Positions 28,467-41,000 of a stretch of DNA of 64,000 nt are shown one piece after another. The stretch is taken from contig CAWGUN010000013.1 in the NCBI GenBank assembly GCA_963825935.1, positions 558,807 through 622,806 on the forward strand, in the 5' to 3' direction. The stretch is from an uncultured Bacteroidales bacterium (GTDB lineage: Bacteria; Bacteroidota; Bacteroidia; Bacteroidales; VadinHA17). The notes under the pieces were generated by a model. It did not search any database. It had not been told where the DNA came from and worked only from the letters and a program-made list of their open reading frames with translations. Positions within the stretch are counted from its first letter, which is position 1. Each line of letters starts with the position of its first letter. A program made the position numbers and the translations under genes.

Positions 28467-31400
28467 TTATTCAGTCTCTACCGGCTCCATAATCCTTTCA
28501 AACTCCTTCACCTGGAAAACAAAAGCCTGAAGCCTTGTATCAAGGGAAACGGAATCCTGGCCGTCGTAAGCAATATTAATAAACGGGATATTGTTATGAT
28601 CTTTACGGAACGAATCACTCACTGCAGATATCAGGGTTCCGGGCATGCAGGTAAATGGCAGGATAGCAGCCAGACCTGAAACTCCTCTTTTTGAAAGTGC
28701 AACCGAAGTGCCCATGGCAATCGCCGGATCACCGTCATAAAACTCATTCACATAGGTATTGCACAAAGTAAGCATTTCGTGAAGAGATACATCTTTATGG
28801 TGATCAGTAAATTTTTTGATTCCCCTTAGCAGGGAGTTCGCTATTACATCCTGTCCGAATCCCTGGATTTTGGATTTAATAACGCCCCGATTATCATTTT
28901 TCCAGCGACTGTCGCGGGTAAAACGATAAGTGGAATAATATATCCATTCTGAAAACGGTCCGATAATAACCTCCGCACCCAGATCTTCAAGCCGGTTTGC
29001 AATATTTCCGTTACATCCGGCATTATCACGCATAAATATTTCTCCTATAATTGCAACTACCGGTCTCCTGGTACTTTTATCAACTTTTATTGACATGAAA
29101 TCTGAAGCAATTCCTGCAAGAACGGTATGGAGCCCGCGGGCTCCCGTCTCGATGCATCTTTCAAGTCTCTTAATTGCATCTTCATAGACTTTATCTGATT
29201 CACCTTTGTTTATCTCATAAGGTCTTGTTTCCCTGTGGATCTTCCTGATATAATCGGCCACAAGAAATCCTTTCCAGGCATTTATTCTGAACTTCTGTCC
29301 ATGTTCCCCTGCAACGTCTTCATATGATGTATCATTAGAGGGAGTTATCAGCTCCGCATTGCTGAATCCAAGGCGATCAAACAGTATCCTGTGAAAGTGG
29401 TTATATTGTCCAAAGCGGCACGGACCATTGTGATCGGGCATGAAAAAACTCATTTTAGAAGGGTCAGCACCCGGTTCTGATAATTTCTTAATAAAACTTC
29501 CTGTGACACAGATCATTGGAAAACATTCTTTGGAGGAAGTATATTTTCTTCCGATAGCGAGATCCTCTTCAGTCTGTTTCGGCAGAACTTCAGAAGGGAC
29601 ACCTATACTCCTGGCCGCCGCAGCCAGCATATATGCTCCATCGTTCATATATGGAAAATATAACACCCTGTCTTTTGGCGGAGATGCAGGGCTTGGCCTC
29701 GGTCTGTAAATAGTGACTTCCTTCTTTTCATTCTGCTCAGAACCTCTCAGGCTATCCAGGAACGCCTCAATACGGGTTACCATGCCCGCATCAGCAGAGT
29801 GCTCATCCACTTCAAGATGAAGGAATGGTTTTCCTTTTAGCTCTTCCGTAACGTAATGCCAGATAAATGAATCGGGTCCGCACCTGAAGTTACTAATGTA
29901 TACGGCATACAGACCATCGGTTTTTGCAACATGCTGGGCCGCCGCAATAATCTTCTGGCCATTAGGCCAGTACATATTCCTGTAATTGACAAATATATTG
30001 TAAGGTGATAGATCGAGCATATCGATGGGGATAGGCATAACATTCTGGGCAATAAGCTTTTCGATCAATCCCAGATTAAGCTGCTGATCAGCGCTGTTAT
30101 AAGGTTTCCCGAGAAGTACGACAGGGCGACAATTTTTAGGGATATCCTTAAGGACATCTTTTCCATATGCCACTAACCTTTTTTCAAATGAGGTCTGAAC
30201 AGTATCAGCATAATATATTGCTTCCCTGATCTCATTTTTGCCGATTCCGAATTTCTCATTGAAAAAAGATGTCATCTCTTTTACAAGTGCACGTTCAAAG
30301 AACCTGAAGTGCAGTGTAGGGATCAGCAGCTTTGATTCATCGATTTTCCCTTTCAGGGCTGCTTTCACCATGAAGGGATAGGTCTGAATCCACGGACAAT
30401 TGCAGTTATATGTCTTGTTCCCTTCACGGAATTTAGCATTGACAATAAATGGCAGAAAGATATAATCAACATTTTTCTCCACCAGATCAATAACATGTCC
30501 GTGCATTATCTCTACCGGGAGACAAGTTTCGGTGGTCATTGTTTCTATTGAACGGGTAAGAAGCGTTTTATCTGATTCTTTTGAAACCACAACGGTAAAT
30601 CCAAGTCTTTCAAAGAATGTTCTCCAGAACGGAAACTGCTGGTAATAAACCATGAGTGCCCTTGGGATCCCTATGGTCGTGGTTTTATATTCTTTAGGTT
30701 CCTCGTAACCCTCTGTCAGCATTTCAATTCTTTTCAGGAATAGATTCGGGATATCGTTCCTTACCTTCTTACGTCCGTCAGTCTCATATTTCTCGCACCT
30801 TCCACCGTAATAAAGAGATTTCTTTTCTCCGGCAATTTTTACACGCCTTATTTCGCAATGGTTAGTGCACCCCTGGCAAACAAACCTGCTCATTTTATAA
30901 GTTGCATTCCTTATACCAAAACCTTTAAAGGTAGTTTTTTGCCCCTGGGTCATTGACCTTTGAGCAAGAATAGCGGCACCAATGGCCCCGGTAACATCAA
31001 AATGAGGGGGAATAATGATTTTCTTCCCCAGAACCTGCTCAAAAGCTGCAACGACTGCTTTATTATTTGTGACTCCGCCCTGAAAGAATATCTTGTCCCC
31101 AACTCTCCGGTCAGCAACTACTTTTTGCAGGTAATTGTAGACAATTGAGTAGGCGAGACCTCCAACGAGATTTTCATTTCTTGCTCCCTTCTGCATGAAT
31201 GAGTTAAGGTCTGATTCCATAAACACCGTACACCGGTCTCCAAGCTTTACGGGGCACTCTGAGTTTAGTGCCATGCACCCGAATTCTTCAATAATATTGA
31301 TATTCAGCTTCTCAGCCTGTTCTTCAAGAAATGATCCCGTTCCGGCAGCGCAAACCTTGTTCATTTCAAAGTCAACAACTACTCCGTTTTCAATGCTTAT

Positions 31401-32720
31401 ATACTTGGAATCCTGCCCGCCGATTTCAAAGATAGTATCAACAGTACGGTCATAATCAATAGCAGCTGTTGCCTGTGCAGTAATCTCATTCTGAATTGTA
31501 TCGGCACCTATAAAATCGCCTGTAAGATACCGGCCTGAACCGGTAGTACCGGCTCCAATTACTTCAACATCTTCGCCTACCTCTTCATAGATCTCGGTAA
31601 TCCCTTTCTGAATAGCTTCCAGGGGCTTTCCTGCAGTCGGAAGGTAACGCCTTGCTATTACATTATGATCAGAATCAATCACGACGACATTAGTACTTAA
31701 TGATCCGACATCGACCCCAAGATAAACAGGAAGCTTCTGATTTCCGTTCTTTTTAAAATTAACTACCTTGTTATAAAGTGCACCCGATTCCACGAGCTTC
31801 GGAAGGCTGACAAATGATGTTGAATCATCAGCCAGGTACTGTTGAAGTTTTTCCATACCCTTGAAATGATTCATTTCAAGTTTGTTGGAACGTGCGTACA
31901 TTACTGCTCCTATGGCTCCCATGGAAGCATGGTACTCAGGGATAATAAGCTCACCTTCCTTAAGATCAAGAATATCACTGAAAGCTCTTACCATGCCTGT
32001 GTTTGCGGCAACTCCTCCTGAAAAAATAACAGGTTTATTAATCTCCTTGCTTCTTGCAACATTGCTTCTGAAGTTACGGGCAAGTGCAAAACACAGACCT
32101 GCAACGATATCATGAAGAGGTGTAGCTATCTGCTGGTGATGAATCATGTCACTTTTTGCAAAGACGCTGCAACGGCCTGCTATTCTTGGAGGATCGACAG
32201 ACATAAGTGCCATCTCCCCAAACTCTTTTTCAATTGGGACTCCAATCCTGCGAGCCTGTTGATCGAGGAATGATCCTGTTCCGGCGGCACAAATACTATT
32301 CATCTCAAAATCAACCAGCCGTGAGGCTCCTGTTACAGGATCCTTTTCAAGAATGATGAGTTTAGAATCTTCACCTCCGATTTCAATAACTGTCCTGGCA
32401 TCAGGAAATAACTTTCCCGAAGAGGTTGCCTGTGCAATTATCTCATTTACAAAAATTCCACCTATGAGATCTGTAGCCAGCTTTCCGCCTGATCCTGTTA
32501 TCGCAATTCCAGTTATGCTATCTGATGAATGTTTTTTAAGAAGTGAGGAGAGTCTCTCATTGAGTATGTTAAATGGTTTGCCATGAACGTAATCATAATA
32601 GTCTTCAATGACATTATAATTTTCATCTAAAAGAACTGTGTTAAGAGAAACTGATCCAATATCCAAACCAAGATAATACTTCTGAAAATCAGCAGCTTCC
32701 GGAGTCCGATTTTGCGCCAT
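28467..32720 (-). CDS. Fusion protein: 2x BcrAD/BadFG-type ATPase (activase) domains + DUF2229/2-hydroxyacyl-CoA-dehydratase-like region
   Basis: 1417 aa.
- Domain 1: LGLDIGSVSLN..CAAGTGSFLDQQ..RCSVFAKSD.
- Domain 2: LGVDVGSLSTN..CAAGTGSFLEEQ..RCTVFMESD.
- Cys-rich linker: CQGCTNHCE..GGRCEKYE.
- The remaining ~800 aa are dehydratase/DUF2229-like (IGIPRALMVYYQQFPFW..). Confidence 0.85.
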   Translation of the reverse strand: MAQNRTPEAADFQKYYLGLDIGSVSLNTVLLDENYNVIEDYYDYVHGKPFNILNERLSSLLKKHSSDSITGIAITGSGGKLATDLIGGIFVNEIIAQATSSGKLFPDARTVIEIGGEDSKLIILEKDPVTGASRLVDFEMNSICAAGTGSFLDQQARRIGVPIEKEFGEMALMSVDPPRIAGRCSVFAKSDMIHHQQIATPLHDIVAGLCFALARNFRSNVARSKEINKPVIFSGGVAANTGMVRAFSDILDLKEGELIIPEYHASMGAIGAVMYARSNKLEMNHFKGMEKLQQYLADDSTSFVSLPKLVESGALYNKVVNFKKNGNQKLPVYLGVDVGSLSTNVVVIDSDHNVIARRYLPTAGKPLEAIQKGITEIYEEVGEDVEVIGAGTTGSGRYLTGDFIGADTIQNEITAQATAAIDYDRTVDTIFEIGGQDSKYISIENGVVVDFEMNKVCAAGTGSFLEEQAEKLNINIIEEFGCMALNSECPVKLGDRCTVFMESDLNSFMQKGARNENLVGGLAYSIVYNYLQKVVADRRVGDKIFFQGGVTNNKAVVAAFEQVLGKKIIIPPHFDVTGAIGAAILAQRSMTQGQKTTFKGFGIRNATYKMSRFVCQGCTNHCEIRRVKIAGEKKSLYYGGRCEKYETDGRKKVRNDIPNLFLKRIEMLTEGYEEPKEYKTTTIGIPRALMVYYQQFPFWRTFFERLGFTVVVSKESDKTLLTRSIETMTTETCLPVEIMHGHVIDLVEKNVDYIFLPFIVNAKFREGNKTYNCNCPWIQTYPFMVKAALKGKIDESKLLIPTLHFRFFERALVKEMTSFFNEKFGIGKNEIREAIYYADTVQTSFEKRLVAYGKDVLKDIPKNCRPVVLLGKPYNSADQQLNLGLIEKLIAQNVMPIPIDMLDLSPYNIFVNYRNMYWPNGQKIIAAAQHVAKTDGLYAVYISNFRCGPDSFIWHYVTEELKGKPFLHLEVDEHSADAGMVTRIEAFLDSLRGSEQNEKKEVTIYRPRPSPASPPKDRVLYFPYMNDGAYMLAAAARSIGVPSEVLPKQTEEDLAIGRKYTSSKECFPMICVTGSFIKKLSEPGADPSKMSFFMPDHNGPCRFGQYNHFHRILFDRLGFSNAELITPSNDTSYEDVAGEHGQKFRINAWKGFLVADYIRKIHRETRPYEINKGESDKVYEDAIKRLERCIETGARGLHTVLAGIASDFMSIKVDKSTRRPVVAIIGEIFMRDNAGCNGNIANRLEDLGAEVIIGPFSEWIYYSTYRFTRDSRWKNDNRGVIKSKIQGFGQDVIANSLLRGIKKFTDHHKDVSLHEMLTLCNTYVNEFYDGDPAIAMGTSVALSKRGVSGLAAILPFTCMPGTLISAVSDSFRKDHNNIPFINIAYDGQDSVSLDTRLQAFVFQVKEFERIMEPVETE

Positions 32721-32862
32721 AAAATATTGTATAAAAGTATGAAATATCCTATTCTACCGAAGGCGGCTAAAATATATATTTTTCCTTTAGGAACCTATTT
32801 TTAAGGTTCTTTTATGATATGTATCATAGCTGAATTTTGTACCAGGCCCGCATAATGCGTCT

Positions 32863-33594
32863 TTATACCCATTCATCTTTAAGTACGTCACCTGATATAC
32901 TGATGATCATCTGTTTGACGGGAACTTTCCTCGTTGATTTTGACAATGCTGACATCACCATTTGAAGCAGACCGCCACAGCATGGAACTTCCATCATCAT
33001 GACAGTGATTGTATTAATCCGGGCAACCTCGATCATTGCCGTCAGCTTTTCGACATAAATATCTGCCCCATGATCAAGTTTCGGACAGGCGATACCAAGT
33101 GATTTTCCAATCAGGAATTTACTGTGAAAGTTACCCAGAGAAAAAGCAACACAGTCAGCGGCAAGCAGCAGATCGGCATCCCTGAAATAGGGTGCATTCG
33201 GATTAACAAGATGCATCTGGATGGGCCATTGTCTTAATTCTGATTGCTGATCTGCAGTAACTATCCTGTTATCTGATTGTCCGGGTTTTTCAATTACCAT
33301 TGCACGTGATCCGGGGCACCCGCCACCTTCCTGACCGAGCTGCCGGGAGTGCCCATGATTATGAGCCTCTGCCATAACCATAGTTTCGCTGAATGGCTCA
33401 GCTTCTCTTGTCTCAATTGTTATTGCACCTTCAGGACAATGCCCAATGCATGCGCCCAGTCCATCGCACATTAACTCGCTTACCAGCCTTACCTTACCGT
33501 CAATAACCTGTAAAGCGCCCTCCTGACAATTTGGAACACACTGTCCGCATCCATTGCATAAATCTTCATCTATTTTAAGAATATCTCTTTTCAT
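32863..33594 (-). CDS. 2x[4Fe-4S] ferredoxin-domain protein with Cys-containing C-terminal domain
   Basis: 243 aa with CNGCGQCVPNCQEGA and CDGLGACIGHCPEGA cluster motifs. The C-terminal domain carries the CPKLD and EVPCCGG motifs. It lies on the same strand, immediately upstream of the activase fusion. Confidence 0.8.
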   Translation of the reverse strand: MKRDILKIDEDLCNGCGQCVPNCQEGALQVIDGKVRLVSELMCDGLGACIGHCPEGAITIETREAEPFSETMVMAEAHNHGHSRQLGQEGGGCPGSRAMVIEKPGQSDNRIVTADQQSELRQWPIQMHLVNPNAPYFRDADLLLAADCVAFSLGNFHSKFLIGKSLGIACPKLDHGADIYVEKLTAMIEVARINTITVMMMEVPCCGGLLQMVMSALSKSTRKVPVKQMIISISGDVLKDEWV

Positions 33595-35238: not shown

Positions 35239-35310
35239 TTTGGTTGATTATTAGGGCAGCAAATATAAAAAAAACATGACTTGTCTGAATAGGAAATGAT
35301 ATAATCAAGA

Positions 35311-37519: not shown

Positions 37520-37819
37520 AAGAACTTAATTCAATGTAAAGACGTTCAATGAGAGGTTTTGTTGCATCCATTTCTGTTAATGTTATGTTAATCATTTGTT
37601 AAAATATTGTATTTATGCGCATAACAAAAAAAATATTTAACTTGCGTCAGGTTTTAAAGTATGATTTCTAATCTCAGATACCGGTTTATGATGCAACGTC
37701 TAGGACGCAGATTATATCATTGTCTGATGTTCTACAACAGGTAGTTAGCATCTTTCCTTTCTCCCAAGGATTATAACTTATTCCTTTTATTTCTTAATTT
37801 TTTATTGATCTCTTTCTTT

Positions 37820-38620
37820 ATGAAAGGCCTTATTTTCAGTTTCAGACGATATTCAATCCATGACGGACCGGGCATCAGGGTGACATTCTTTATGAAGGGA
37901 TGTCCTCTCTCATGCTGGTGGTGTCATAATCCGGAAGGAAAATCTCCGGATCCTGAAAAGGTTAAACAGATTGAAAAAGTGGGAGAGAGGCAGTTTTATA
38001 AAATCGAGGATGTTGGAAAATACTATTCTGTTGAAGAGATCCTTGATATACTTGAAAAGGATAAAATATTTATTTCGGAGTCAAAGGGAGGAGTTACTTT
38101 CTCAGGAGGAGAACCAATGCTTCAGACAGAATTTCTGACAGAAGCTCTGAAAGCATGTAAGGAAAACGGATATCATACTGCGGTCGATACTTCTGGATAT
38201 TCCAGGGCTGAAAATTTCAAAGCAGTGATTCCTTTTACCGATCTTTTCCTGTTTGACCTCAAGCACCTCGATAATGAAAAGCATAATCAGTTTACCGGAG
38301 TTTCTAATTTGTTCATTATCAATAATTTTAAACTATTGATTGACAGCGGAAAAGATATAATGGTCAGGATTCCGGTTATTCCCGGCTTTAATGATGATCC
38401 TGTAAATCTGTTGAAGCTGAAGGATTTTCTGATAGCCTCAAAAACTGAAAACCTGAAAAAGATAAACCTGCTTCCATATCATAAAACGGGTTCATCAAAA
38501 TATAAAAAGCTTAAAATTCCTGATCAGATGGAAAATATAACAGCACCGTCCACTGAGAGAATGAATGAACTGAAAAAATTCTTCGAAGAAACAGGAATTA
38601 AAGTTAAGATTGGTGGATAA
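37820..38620 (+). CDS. Glycyl-radical enzyme activating protein (radical SAM), short form without ferredoxin-like insert
   Basis: The in-frame ATG at 37820 gives MKGLIFSFRRYSIHDGPGIRVTFFMKGCPLSCWWCHNPE (CX3CX2C), whereas the track starts at the TTG at 37805. The following ~30 aa contain no Cys. GGEPMLQ is present. Confidence 0.88.
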   Translation: MKGLIFSFRRYSIHDGPGIRVTFFMKGCPLSCWWCHNPEGKSPDPEKVKQIEKVGERQFYKIEDVGKYYSVEEILDILEKDKIFISESKGGVTFSGGEPMLQTEFLTEALKACKENGYHTAVDTSGYSRAENFKAVIPFTDLFLFDLKHLDNEKHNQFTGVSNLFIINNFKLLIDSGKDIMVRIPVIPGFNDDPVNLLKLKDFLIASKTENLKKINLLPYHKTGSSKYKKLKIPDQMENITAPSTERMNELKKFFEETGIKVKIGG

Positions 38621-38630
38621 ATACTATCAT

Positions 38631-41000
38631 ATGATACTATCAGACAGAGTAAAAAAGTTGAGAGACCAGAGCCTGAATGCAGTAGAGAAGCTCTCTCCGG
38701 AACGTGCATTGTTAATGACTCAATTTTATAAAAGTGATGAAGCAAGAGAACTCTCTGCTCCTGTTAAAAGAGCGAGGTCCTTTGAGTATCTCCTGAAAAA
38801 TAAAAAGCTCTATCTCGGCGATGGTGAGCTGATCGTAGGAGAGAGAGGTCCGGCACCCAAGGAGACTCCTGCCTATCCTGAGATCAGCCTTCATTCTTTA
38901 AAAGACCTTGATATACTGAATTCAAGGGAAAAAGTTTCATTCAAGGTCGATGAAGAAGTGAAGAGTCTCTATGAGAAGGAGATAATTCCTTTCTGGAAAG
39001 GTAAAAGCAACCGGGACAGATTCATGAACCTGATGACGACGAAATGGCATAATGCTTATAATGCCGGAATGTTCACTGAATTTCAGGAACAGCGGGCTCC
39101 CGGGCATACAGTTCTGGGATATAAAATATTCAGGACAGGTTTTCTCAGGCTTAAAGAAGAAATAAAGGATAGCTTGAACGGACTGAATTATTTCAGCGAC
39201 CCGCTGGCCTTTGAGAAGCATGAGGAGCTCATAGCAATGGACATTGCCTCTGATGCTATAATTATGTACGCAAACCGGTATGCAGATGAGCTTGAGAGAT
39301 TTGCAAAAGGTGAAAAAGACCAGAAAAGGAGATCTGAGCTTGAGAAGATGGCTTCAATCTGCCGGAAGGTCCCTGCTCATGCCCCTGAAACAGTGCATGA
39401 AATGCTTCAGCATTACTGGTTCATTCATATTGGTGTTATCACAGAGCTGAATCCATGGGATTCCTTTAATCCCGGGCGTCTGGATCAGCATCTCTTCCCG
39501 GTTTATAAGAAAGAGATGGAAGCCGGGACGCTGACACAAGAAGAATTATTCGACCTTCTGGGATGTTTCTGGGTTAAATTCAATAATCACCCTTCACCTC
39601 CAAAAATGGGTGTAACTGCCTCTGAAAGCAGTACTTACACGGATTTTTGCCTTATTAATATCGGAGGTGTAAAACCCGATGGTACTGATGCGGTAAATGA
39701 GATGTCATATATTCTCCTTGATGTTGTTAAAGAGATGAGGATACTTCAGCCTGGTTCAATGGTTCAGATAAGCAGGAAGAGTCCCGACAGGTTTATCCAC
39801 AAAGCTCTCGATATAATAAGGACGGGTTTTGGCCAGCCATCATGTTTTAACACGGAGGCAATTATACAGGAACTTCTGCGACAGGGGAAAAATATTGCCG
39901 ATGCCCGTAACGGAGGAGCTTCAGGATGTGTTGAGACAGGAGCTTTCGGAACAGAAGCTTATTGGCTCACCGGCTACTTTAACCTTCCCAAAGTTCTTGA
40001 TCTTACTTTAAACAATGGAATTGACAGAATTACAAATCAAAAGGTTGGCCTGCAGACAGGATTTGCAGAGGATTACGGAACCTTCGATGAATTGTTATCT
40101 GCCTTTAAAACCCAGGTCAATTACTTTATTGACATTAAAATAAGAGGTAACAATATTATTGAAAAAACATTTGCAAAATGGCTGCCTGTACCGTTCCTTT
40201 CATTGCTGGTTGAAGATTGTATTAAAAACGGAAAGGATTACAATGACGGAGGGGCACGGTACAATACAACCTATATCCAGGGAGTCGGCCTTGGCAGTAT
40301 AACTGACATGCTTACTTCTATCAGGTATAATATCTATGACAGGAAAAATTTTACATGGAGTGAACTGACCCGGGCAACAGATGCTGATTTTGTGGGATTT
40401 GAGCAGATACAGCATGATCTGATTTACAATACTCCAAAATATGGGAATGATGATGATTATGCAGATCAGCATGCTGCTGCGGTTTTTGAAATTTATTATG
40501 ATGCAGTTAATGGCAGGCCTGATTCAAGAGGTGGTGTTCACCGGATAAATATGCTTCCTACCACATCGCATGTTTATTTCGGAAGCGTAACCGGTGCCAC
40601 ACCTGACGGACGCAAAGCACATAAGCCTCTCTCTGAGGGTATTTCACCAAGTCAGGGAGTTGATAAGGAGGGGCCAACCTCAGTCATAAAGTCTGCCTCC
40701 AGAATAGATCATCTGCGTACCGGGGGAACACTGCTTAATCAGAAATTTTCACCCCGGTTTTTTGAAGACGAGGAAAGCTATAACTGCCTTACTGCGCTCA
40801 TACGCAGTTATTTTGCTCTCGACGGGCATCATATTCAGTTCAATGTGGTTAATGCTGAAACTCTAAGGGATGCACAGAAACATCCCGAATTATACCGCGA
40901 TCTTATTGTAAGAGTTGCAGGGTACAGTGATTATTTCAACGATCTGGGAGAGGATCTGCAGAATGAGATCATTGAAAGGACGGAGCAAGAAAATGGATAA
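38631..41000 (+). CDS. hypD: Glycyl radical enzyme, dehydratase/lyase clade; trans-4-hydroxy-L-proline dehydratase (HypD)-like
   Basis: 789 aa from the ATG at 38631 (the track starts at the TTG at 38610, overlapping the activase stop). It has the Gly-radical motif RVAGYS, the thiyl loop GGASGCVETG, and the strings APGHTV, ELNPWDSF, ESSTYTDF, EAYWLTGY and LPTTSH. The family call (glycyl radical enzyme) is near-certain. The HypD assignment rests on remembered residues. Confidence 0.75.
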   Translation: MILSDRVKKLRDQSLNAVEKLSPERALLMTQFYKSDEARELSAPVKRARSFEYLLKNKKLYLGDGELIVGERGPAPKETPAYPEISLHSLKDLDILNSREKVSFKVDEEVKSLYEKEIIPFWKGKSNRDRFMNLMTTKWHNAYNAGMFTEFQEQRAPGHTVLGYKIFRTGFLRLKEEIKDSLNGLNYFSDPLAFEKHEELIAMDIASDAIIMYANRYADELERFAKGEKDQKRRSELEKMASICRKVPAHAPETVHEMLQHYWFIHIGVITELNPWDSFNPGRLDQHLFPVYKKEMEAGTLTQEELFDLLGCFWVKFNNHPSPPKMGVTASESSTYTDFCLINIGGVKPDGTDAVNEMSYILLDVVKEMRILQPGSMVQISRKSPDRFIHKALDIIRTGFGQPSCFNTEAIIQELLRQGKNIADARNGGASGCVETGAFGTEAYWLTGYFNLPKVLDLTLNNGIDRITNQKVGLQTGFAEDYGTFDELLSAFKTQVNYFIDIKIRGNNIIEKTFAKWLPVPFLSLLVEDCIKNGKDYNDGGARYNTTYIQGVGLGSITDMLTSIRYNIYDRKNFTWSELTRATDADFVGFEQIQHDLIYNTPKYGNDDDYADQHAAAVFEIYYDAVNGRPDSRGGVHRINMLPTTSHVYFGSVTGATPDGRKAHKPLSEGISPSQGVDKEGPTSVIKSASRIDHLRTGGTLLNQKFSPRFFEDEESYNCLTALIRSYFALDGHHIQFNVVNAETLRDAQKHPELYRDLIVRVAGYSDYFNDLGEDLQNEIIERTEQENG

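Follow-up and report, generated by a model that had tools for sequence, protein, structure and literature searches.

Two genes of Clostridium perfringens, plsA and plsR (CPE1194 and CPE1195; UniProt Q8XL48 and Q8XL47), specify its anaerobic plasmalogen synthase, an enzyme of the benzoyl-CoA reductase/2-hydroxyacyl-CoA dehydratase family (PMC12838417). In many other bacteria the synthase is a single gene, instead, of ~4.25 kb—as in Enterococcus faecalis (Q835P9), Lactococcus cremoris and Bifidobacterium longum—and the genes of each of these three organisms, like those of C. perfringens, confer plasmalogen synthesis on Escherichia coli (PMC12838417). Here we compare with these enzymes the product of a 1417-codon open reading frame (ORF) of an uncultured Bacteroidales bacterium, which begins with ATG and occupies positions 28467–32720 of the minus strand in a stretch of 64 000 nucleotides (contig CAWGUN010000013.1 of assembly GCA_963825935.1, positions 558,807–622,806), referred to below as 'the window'. 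We consider it likely that this protein is a single-chain member of the PlsA/PlsR–Ger family, an ether-lipid synthase of anaerobes. Its sequence places it in that family with good confidence, and its predicted substrate, by analogy with the enzymes already characterized, is probably a membrane glycerophospholipid.

Enzymes of the PlsA/PlsR–Ger family are oxygen-sensitive, ATP-driven iron–sulfur (Fe–S) proteins; their substrate is a membrane glycerophospholipid, in which they change the acyl ester at sn-1 into an ether bond: a vinyl ether, and hence a plasmalogen, in the case of PlsA, and a saturated alkyl ether in the case of Ger (PMC12838417, PMC13159169). Ger, or 'modified PlsA', is represented by proteins of Thermotoga maritima (Tmari_0479/AGL49404) and Desulfatibacillum alkenivorans (SHJ90043) that give rise to 1-O-alkyl ethers in E. 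coli; their target is the ester at sn-1 of membrane glycerolipids, and they are active only under anaerobic conditions (PMC13159169). 'Modified PlsA'/Ger has been placed in D. alkenivorans, Candidatus Kuenenia and Thermodesulfobacterium (PMC8788747), and PlsA/PlsR homologues in ~15% of sequenced Bacteroidota (PMC10191378). As the work of Jackson et al. (2021) is relayed in later papers (PMC12838417, PMC9702350, PMC10191378), the PlsA/PlsR architecture consists of two BcrAD_BadFG domains and DUF2229, with or without HGD-D. The Pfam architecture of Ger is written 'BBD...', for two BcrAD_BadFG, DUF2229, and then small DUF2229/HGD-D pieces, and the field's operational criteria for membership are Pfam architecture, E ≤ 1e-50 and coverage of at least 30% (PMC13159169).

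Organization of the window protein

Two activase (ATPase) domains lie in tandem at the N-terminus. Pfam reports BcrAD_BadFG twice (E 4.2e-77), the second copy at residues 334–586, and the NCBIfam acyl-CoA dehydratase activase model, TIGR00241, also matches twice (E 2e-94). Domain 1 (residues ~15–280; 31881–32678, minus strand) contains the cluster motifs NSICAAGTGSFL (C144) and AGRCSVFAKS (C184), and domain 2 (residues ~334–590; 30951–31721, minus strand) contains NKVCAAGTGSFL (C457) and GDRCTVFMES (C497). With phmmer, domain 2 matches MbdQ (9gai_D, E 7e-33) and the activator HgdC (1hux, E 7e-29), and in the alignment with the latter C457 and C497 superpose on Cys127 and Cys166. Domain 1 aligns likewise with HadI (4eht, E 7e-31, residues 15–280), and the phmmer matches of the ATPase domains take in the DCCP reductase, DCCP-R (7yyl_E), and MbdQ/MbdP as well. 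HgdC and HadI are free homodimer activators; in the window protein the two activase domains are fused in tandem in the same chain, instead.

Behind the activase domains comes a Cys-rich linker, CQGCTNHCE...GGRCEKYE (residues ~612–646; 30783–30887, minus strand), in which C615, C618, C622 and C642 form a predicted extra Fe–S site between the activase and acceptor parts. Two acceptor modules follow. The first (residues ~682–991; 29748–30677, minus strand) corresponds to the C-terminal part of PlsA and contains C733, C775 and C947. Most of it is accounted for by DUF2229 (PF09989; residues 682–902, E 3.7e-63, 213.5 bits versus a cut-off of 29.4), whereas HGD-D (PF06050) stays below threshold, at 24.2 bits versus 28.4, and over residues 913–991 only. 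The second (residues ~1031–1411; 28488–29630, minus strand) is the equivalent of PlsR, as judged by BLASTP, and contains C1066, C1101 and C1358. A 19-residue Kyte–Doolittle scan gave no indication of a transmembrane helix anywhere in the protein (peak 1.63).

With its 1417 codons and more than 8000 homologues in the databases, the ORF is not a chance feature. The best 120 of these homologues come from Bacteroidales/Bacteroidota and are 1386–1438 amino acids (aa) long, nearly all of them 1408–1431. The original prediction, made from the letters of the window, had described two tandem BcrAD/BadFG ATPase domains with HgdC-type cluster ligands, then a Cys-rich linker and ~800 aa resembling DUF2229/HgdAB—a covalent double activase, in short, joined to its acceptor—and had proposed a scan with profile hidden Markov models (HMMs) to fix the domain boundaries. 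The scan, the ligand alignments and the comparisons described below bear this anatomy out.

Colinearity with PlsA and PlsR

For a reference of proven function we used the plsA–plsR locus of C. perfringens, which was found by way of the cloning primer printed in Table S6 of PMC12838417. This primer matches 11 metagenome contigs exactly. In one of them, L004 (L-numbers are our labels for the loci compared), the distance from the TTG start in the primer to the stop codon of the second gene, plsR, is 4199 bp, the same length as is reported for the functional C. perfringens fragment cloned by Jackson et al.; the L004 locus is thus plsA–plsR. The primer for E. faecalis plsA (ATGGTTATGAGAGCAGGGAT) has no exact match among species-representative genomes.

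BLASTP aligns residues 15–991 of the window protein with residues 3–972 of C. perfringens PlsA (30% identity, E 2e-130), the DUF2229/HGD-D module falling upon PlsA 664–972, and it aligns residues 1031–1411 with residues 34–418 of the 420 of PlsR (22% identity, E 7e-24). In Pfam terms PlsA, too, has two BcrAD_BadFG stretches, followed by DUF2229 at 664–882, and the order of parts is the same in the two systems throughout: two activase domains, four-Cys linker, DUF2229 module and PlsR-like module. Since it is colinear first with PlsA and then with PlsR, the window protein is a homologue of a PlsA–PlsR fusion, present as one chain where C. perfringens has two separate genes. Its coding sequence is 4251 bp long, versus 4248 bp for the single-gene plsA of E. 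faecalis. It resembles Ger as that enzyme is described—a single polypeptide of BBD(H...) architecture—and its own architecture, E-value and coverage fall within the limits that the field applies. The large fused family had been thought to lack an assigned reaction. PlsA/PlsR and Ger share its architecture, however, and one of them, the validated C. perfringens pair, is colinear with the window protein; at the level of the family, then, a reaction has been assigned.

Conserved cysteines and fold

Using residues 600–1417 as the query, we searched 1.84 billion cluster representatives and obtained 4549 matches at E ≤ 1e-3, 950 of them at E ≤ 1e-30; most of the top matches are ~1400 aa long. The window protein, 89 diverse full-length representatives, and C. 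perfringens PlsA and PlsR joined end to end were then aligned (91 sequences). Fourteen cysteines are 99–100% conserved in this alignment, in a 4 + 4 + 3 + 3 pattern. C144, C184, C457 and C497 of the ATPase domains and C733, C775 and C947 of the DUF2229 module are invariant; the four of the linker are kept at 99–100%, in C. perfringens PlsA among others; and C1066, C1101 and C1358 of the PlsR-like module are conserved at 99%. All 14 are common to the window protein and C. perfringens PlsAR. Judged by sequence, a bridging cluster, a relay site and a pair of clusters with three Cys ligands each would account for these numbers. Three cysteines per acceptor module is also the number in HadBC and HgdAB, and the three-Cys clusters would be of the kind found in 2-hydroxyacyl-CoA dehydratase subunits such as HadBC.

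Compared with the PDB as a sequence profile, the C-terminal 818 aa showed no solved relative and no dehydratase chain. Likeness becomes apparent at the level of structure, instead. The AlphaFold2 model of residues 600–1417 (predicted local distance difference test score, pLDDT, 79.5; predicted template modeling score 0.80) has as its top matches in the PDB the double-cubane-cluster protein (DCCP), BzdNO, which comprises the catalytic subunits of class I benzoyl-CoA reductase, and HadB, all with probability 1.0 and with E-values between 4.6e-5 and 2e-3 (7yyl_A, 4.6e-5; 8s02_B, 6.1e-5; 6eno, 9.3e-5; HadB 3o3m_A, 1.8e-3). DCCP and BzdNO are the best of these, at only ~10–12% identity in the structural alignments. 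What the window protein has in common with DCCP/DCCP-R, and with the class I benzoyl-CoA reductases (BzdNOPQ, MbdONQP), is the principle of ATP-coupled injection of a low-potential electron.

A possible course of the reaction

The domain anatomy of the window protein, its conserved cysteines, its colinear homology to PlsA plus PlsR, and the likeness of its C-terminal part to DCCP, BzdNO and HadB are matters of observation. What we infer from them—the cluster types, the path of the electron, the lipid substrate and the product—might be put together in the following way. The tandem BcrAD_BadFG domains would fold upon each other as an intramolecular pseudo-dimer that holds a single bridging [4Fe–4S] cluster by way of C144, C184, C457 and C497. 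A low-potential donor of the cell, ferredoxin or flavodoxin, would reduce this cluster, and the binding and hydrolysis of ATP would then drive the electron on, downhill in potential, by way of the linker's four-Cys site (C615/C618/C622/C642), to the two modules that resemble 2-hydroxyacyl-CoA dehydratase, benzoyl-CoA reductase and DCCP, with their three conserved Cys each (C733/C775/C947 and C1066/C1101/C1358). There, the ester carbonyl would be reduced and dehydrated to yield a 1-alkenyl ether, or reduced further to yield an alkyl ether. In the lineage of the window, the ferredoxin encoded just upstream may supply the electrons, but not, it appears, as a conserved or required partner.

Substrate and product: the alternatives

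Does the window enzyme make plasmalogens? A variant of the ether-lipid reading, possible but in our estimation doubtful, is that it is a glycerol ester reductase of the Ger type, making saturated 1-O-alkyl ethers, and possibly sn-2 ethers also, rather than plasmalogens. It is 42–47% identical to full-length homologues from metagenome-assembled genomes (MAGs) of Desulfobacterota, Candidatus Scalindua (anammox) and Thermodesulfatator, and it is in related lineages that Ger has been described (PMC8788747); its identity to clostridial PlsAR, by comparison, is only ~27%. The presence of two activase domains ('BB') has been tied to the validated Ger enzymes (PMC13274423), but it does not discriminate, as C. 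perfringens PlsA has two BcrAD_BadFG stretches by Pfam as well. B. thetaiotaomicron, moreover, is reported to contain phosphatidylethanolamine plasmalogens (PMC10191378), and a homologue 59% identical to the window protein is present in the MAG of an uncultured Bacteroides sp. (L026). Finally, Ger and PlsA are at present inseparable by primary sequence (PMC13274423), and the validated reference in our comparison was C. perfringens PlsAR.

A more radical departure would be that only the scaffold is common to the window protein and PlsA/Ger, and that the protein is an uncharacterized ATP-driven, low-potential reductase or dehydratase that acts upon a small substrate other than a lipid. Several circumstances favor this idea and weigh against the ether-lipid assignment. 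Overall identity to C. perfringens PlsAR, the only validated reference compared, is ~27% in the concatenated alignment; a homologue search that started from a Desulfobacteraceae protein, together with cluster look-ups, brought up MAG or unnamed entries only. The 89 representatives are 29–58% identical to the window protein, whereas C. perfringens PlsAR is an outgroup, 22–27% identical to all of them. By this alignment the window protein sits within a large clade of fused proteins of ~1400 aa, spread over Bacteroidota, Desulfobacterota, Planctomycetota, Nitrospirota, Armatimonadota, Chloroflexota and others, and the validated enzyme compared falls outside it. Moreover, the family takes in 950 representative clusters at E ≤ 1e-30, a very large number, and Bacillota genomes contain several extra PlsA-like paralogues whose role is unclear (PMC13274423), so that paralogy is a real risk for the assignment. 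In the window, none of the adjacent genes belongs to lipid biosynthesis, nor does the gene context of the other loci provide a link to lipids, and the source names among the matches listed (P0003–P0120 and P0391–P0510) are all generic: 'predicted CoA-substrate-specific enzyme activase', 'acyl-CoA dehydratase activase', 'CoA activase' or 'hypothetical protein'.

We nevertheless regard a non-lipid substrate as unlikely. Colinearity with PlsA and PlsR runs from end to end, linker and all 14 cysteines included, and the protein lies within the field's operational limits of architecture, E-value and coverage (PMC13159169). Validated members are known, furthermore, from Bacillota, Actinomycetota, Thermotogota and Desulfobacterota, and because they come from four phyla, ether-lipid activity probably goes back to the ancestor of a broad part of the family.

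Enzymes that act upon CoA esters were considered, too. A 2-hydroxyacyl-CoA dehydratase with a separate activator is a poor fit, given the sub-threshold HGD-D match, the fused activator, and the lack of a CoA gene within ~10 kb. HgdAB and HadBC differ from the window protein also in the four-Cys linker, which is additional in the latter, and the known substrate of the PlsA/Ger family is a phospholipid ester as opposed to the CoA thioester of these dehydratases. Class I benzoyl-CoA reductase can be set aside as well: scores fall far short of the NCBIfam equivalog cut-offs for the BcrA, BcrD and BzdQ subunits (TIGR02259, 168 versus 578; TIGR03192, 115 versus 380; TIGR02261, 99 versus 313). That no CoA-transferase, CoA-ligase or acyl-CoA dehydrogenase gene is adjacent had already been remarked upon, with the suggestion that the substrate could be something other than a CoA ester. 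We find none of the three within ~10 kb on either side, and the suggestion agrees with the PlsA/Ger literature, in which the substrates are esters of membrane lipids.

The upstream ferredoxin

On the same strand, 142 bp upstream of the synthase gene, is a gene for a 243-aa ferredoxin (32863–33594, minus strand; ATG start). Its N-terminal part comprises a pair of Fer4 motifs with seven Cys (Pfam, residues 6–62), and its C-terminal part contains ACPKLD and PCCGG and corresponds to the domain PF27217, 'AF_0155', precomputed on homologues of the protein (window 32866–33327, minus strand). The second Fer4 motif (window 33409–33579, minus strand) reads C43-x5-C49-x3-C53-P, with three cysteines, not four, and it does so in all 37 aligned homologues; to judge by the sequence, it may hold a [3Fe–4S] cluster, or have a fourth ligand that is remote or not a Cys. 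The protein had been announced as a 2×[4Fe–4S] ferredoxin. Location, strand, the Fer4 region and the CPKLD/PCCGG domain are all as announced, but with a three-Cys second motif two complete [4Fe–4S] clusters are not assured.

The AF_0155 domain contains five invariant cysteines, C93, C148, C170, C205 and C206. The spacing C170-x34-CC may resemble half of a CCG motif, that of HdrB-like domains, although CCG was not reported for the ferredoxin by the Pfam scan. In many homologues the Fer4 region and AF_0155 are set apart by an extra insert of ~50 aa and, after it, a His-rich stretch that varies; the insert is missing from the window copy. The AlphaFold2 model of the ferredoxin is poor (pLDDT 55; C-terminal domain, 62–92), and Foldseek found no match to it in the PDB at E ≤ 1e-3. 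A literature search for AF_0155 returned only accession-number collisions.

Is this ferredoxin the dedicated donor of the synthase, with which it has co-evolved as a two-gene redox module? So the original prediction had it, and the proximity of the two genes on one strand, the occurrence of the same arrangement in 10 loci, and the extra five-Cys domain, which could hold another cluster, all speak for the idea. The 10 loci are two large Bacteroidales contigs (L012 and L013), L096/L097, L014, L016, L017, L018, L019 and L031, and wherever identity was measured (that is, in all but L096/L097) their synthases are ~74–87% identical to that of the window. In L060, the ferredoxin comes after the match, instead. 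Beyond such close relatives the association disappears. In ~70 loci of 32–67% identity, searched with an HMM of AF_0155, the domain is missing from the 6 kb around, 11 other Bacteroidota loci among them (L020–L024, L026, L027, L047, L063, L068 and, although labelled Thermotogaceae, L028), and no AF_0155 ferredoxin was found beside C. perfringens plsAR. Elsewhere the upstream gene varies and may encode radical SAM, AhpC/TSA, PPK2, a methyltransferase or still other proteins. In L094/L095 and L098/L099, conversely, it is the synthase gene that is absent, and the ferredoxin keeps its syntenic place, flanked by a divergent Crp/Fnr-type regulator and AP_endonuc_2/PdxB; and pls or ger genes expressed singly in E. 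coli yield ether lipids with no partner ferredoxin supplied (PMC12838417, PMC13159169). Because adjacency is shallow, because distant loci lack the ferredoxin, because the ferredoxin occurs without the synthase, and because single genes are active in E. coli, a dedicated, co-evolved donor is unlikely; nor is the ferredoxin always upstream, as the proposed comparison of neighborhoods was meant to establish. More improbable still is the combined proposal that the fused clade makes a lipid product, or uses a substrate, unlike those of validated PlsA/Ger, and that a shallow Bacteroidales lineage has recruited the AF_0155-type ferredoxin as an electron-input module.

Gene neighborhood

Between the ferredoxin and synthase genes, the 142 bp of spacer (32721–32862, minus strand) contain a small hairpin, GAACCT-TAAAAAT-AGGTTC, with 6-bp arms and a loop of seven nucleotides (32791–32809, minus strand), which is not directly followed by a run of T. 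A consensus scan of the spacer found no convincing minus-strand promoter or terminator, the consensus used for promoters being that of sigma-70, which is unfit for Bacteroidota. Further away, on the plus strand (37805–41000), the window encodes a 271-aa radical-SAM activase (Radical_SAM and Fer4_12) and, after it, a PFL-like glycyl-radical enzyme of 796 aa (PFL-like, E 1.7e-211; Gly_radical, E 1.5e-36), and the presence of this pair indicates that the host is an anaerobe.

In relatives, a Crp/Fnr-type regulator of 223–225 aa (cNMP_binding and HTH_Crp_2) is encoded divergently upstream of the ferredoxin (L012 2768–3439, L013 4208–4879, L094 1538–2215, L096 3703–4374 and L098 4763–5434), in some cases with an M28 peptidase gene between the two. 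No such regulator is present in the window, where only a 72-bp gap (35239–35310) separates the genes for a histidine kinase and an M28 peptidase. In the distant loci the upstream genes are heterogeneous. Radical_SAM is the commonest family, at 11 of 113 ORFs, and no Fer4 family recurs.

Some of these distant neighborhoods deserve mention in their own right. In Desulfobacterota-type MAG loci, the PlsA/Ger-like gene is immediately preceded, on its own strand, by a Radical_SAM gene for a protein of 304–335 aa (L039 4958–5962, L040 4851–5819, L044 4691–5602, L046 4667–5596, L072 5030–5998 and L080 4818–5741), and in four of the six the protein has a C-terminal winged-helix match (MarR/HTH_20-like). 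In three Bacteroidota loci of 55–60% identity, one of them labelled Bacteroides sp., an AhpC/TSA peroxiredoxin gene is directly upstream on the same strand (L020 1286–1843, L026 2097–2654 and L063 4017–4703), and L020 has, further out, a thioredoxin-reductase-like Pyr_redox_2 gene; the peroxiredoxin may relate to the antioxidant role that has been proposed for plasmalogens. Synthases from most non-Bacteroidota loci are only ~32–50% identical to the window protein. Those of L028 (labelled as a Thermotogaceae MAG) and of L029, L059 and L089 (Spirochaetales/Spirochaetaceae MAGs) are 56–67% identical, as close as other Bacteroidales, which suggests mis-binning of contigs or lateral transfer.

What the assignment means

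The window protein does not come from an orphan family; the PlsA/PlsR–Ger family has been characterized experimentally. The PlsA/Ger assignment has been in the literature since 2021, yet it is reflected in none of the database names listed. The very large Bacteroidales proteins that go by the name 'CoA enzyme activase' belong, instead, to the family responsible for the oxygen-independent synthesis of bacterial plasmalogens and alkyl ether lipids. Two matters of interest remain: the product of the fused clade, vinyl or alkyl ether, and the AF_0155 domain, which is uncharacterized. The assignment is of relevance to the lipid biology of gut and sediment, to the use of ether lipids as biomarkers, and to the pipelines by which genomes are annotated.

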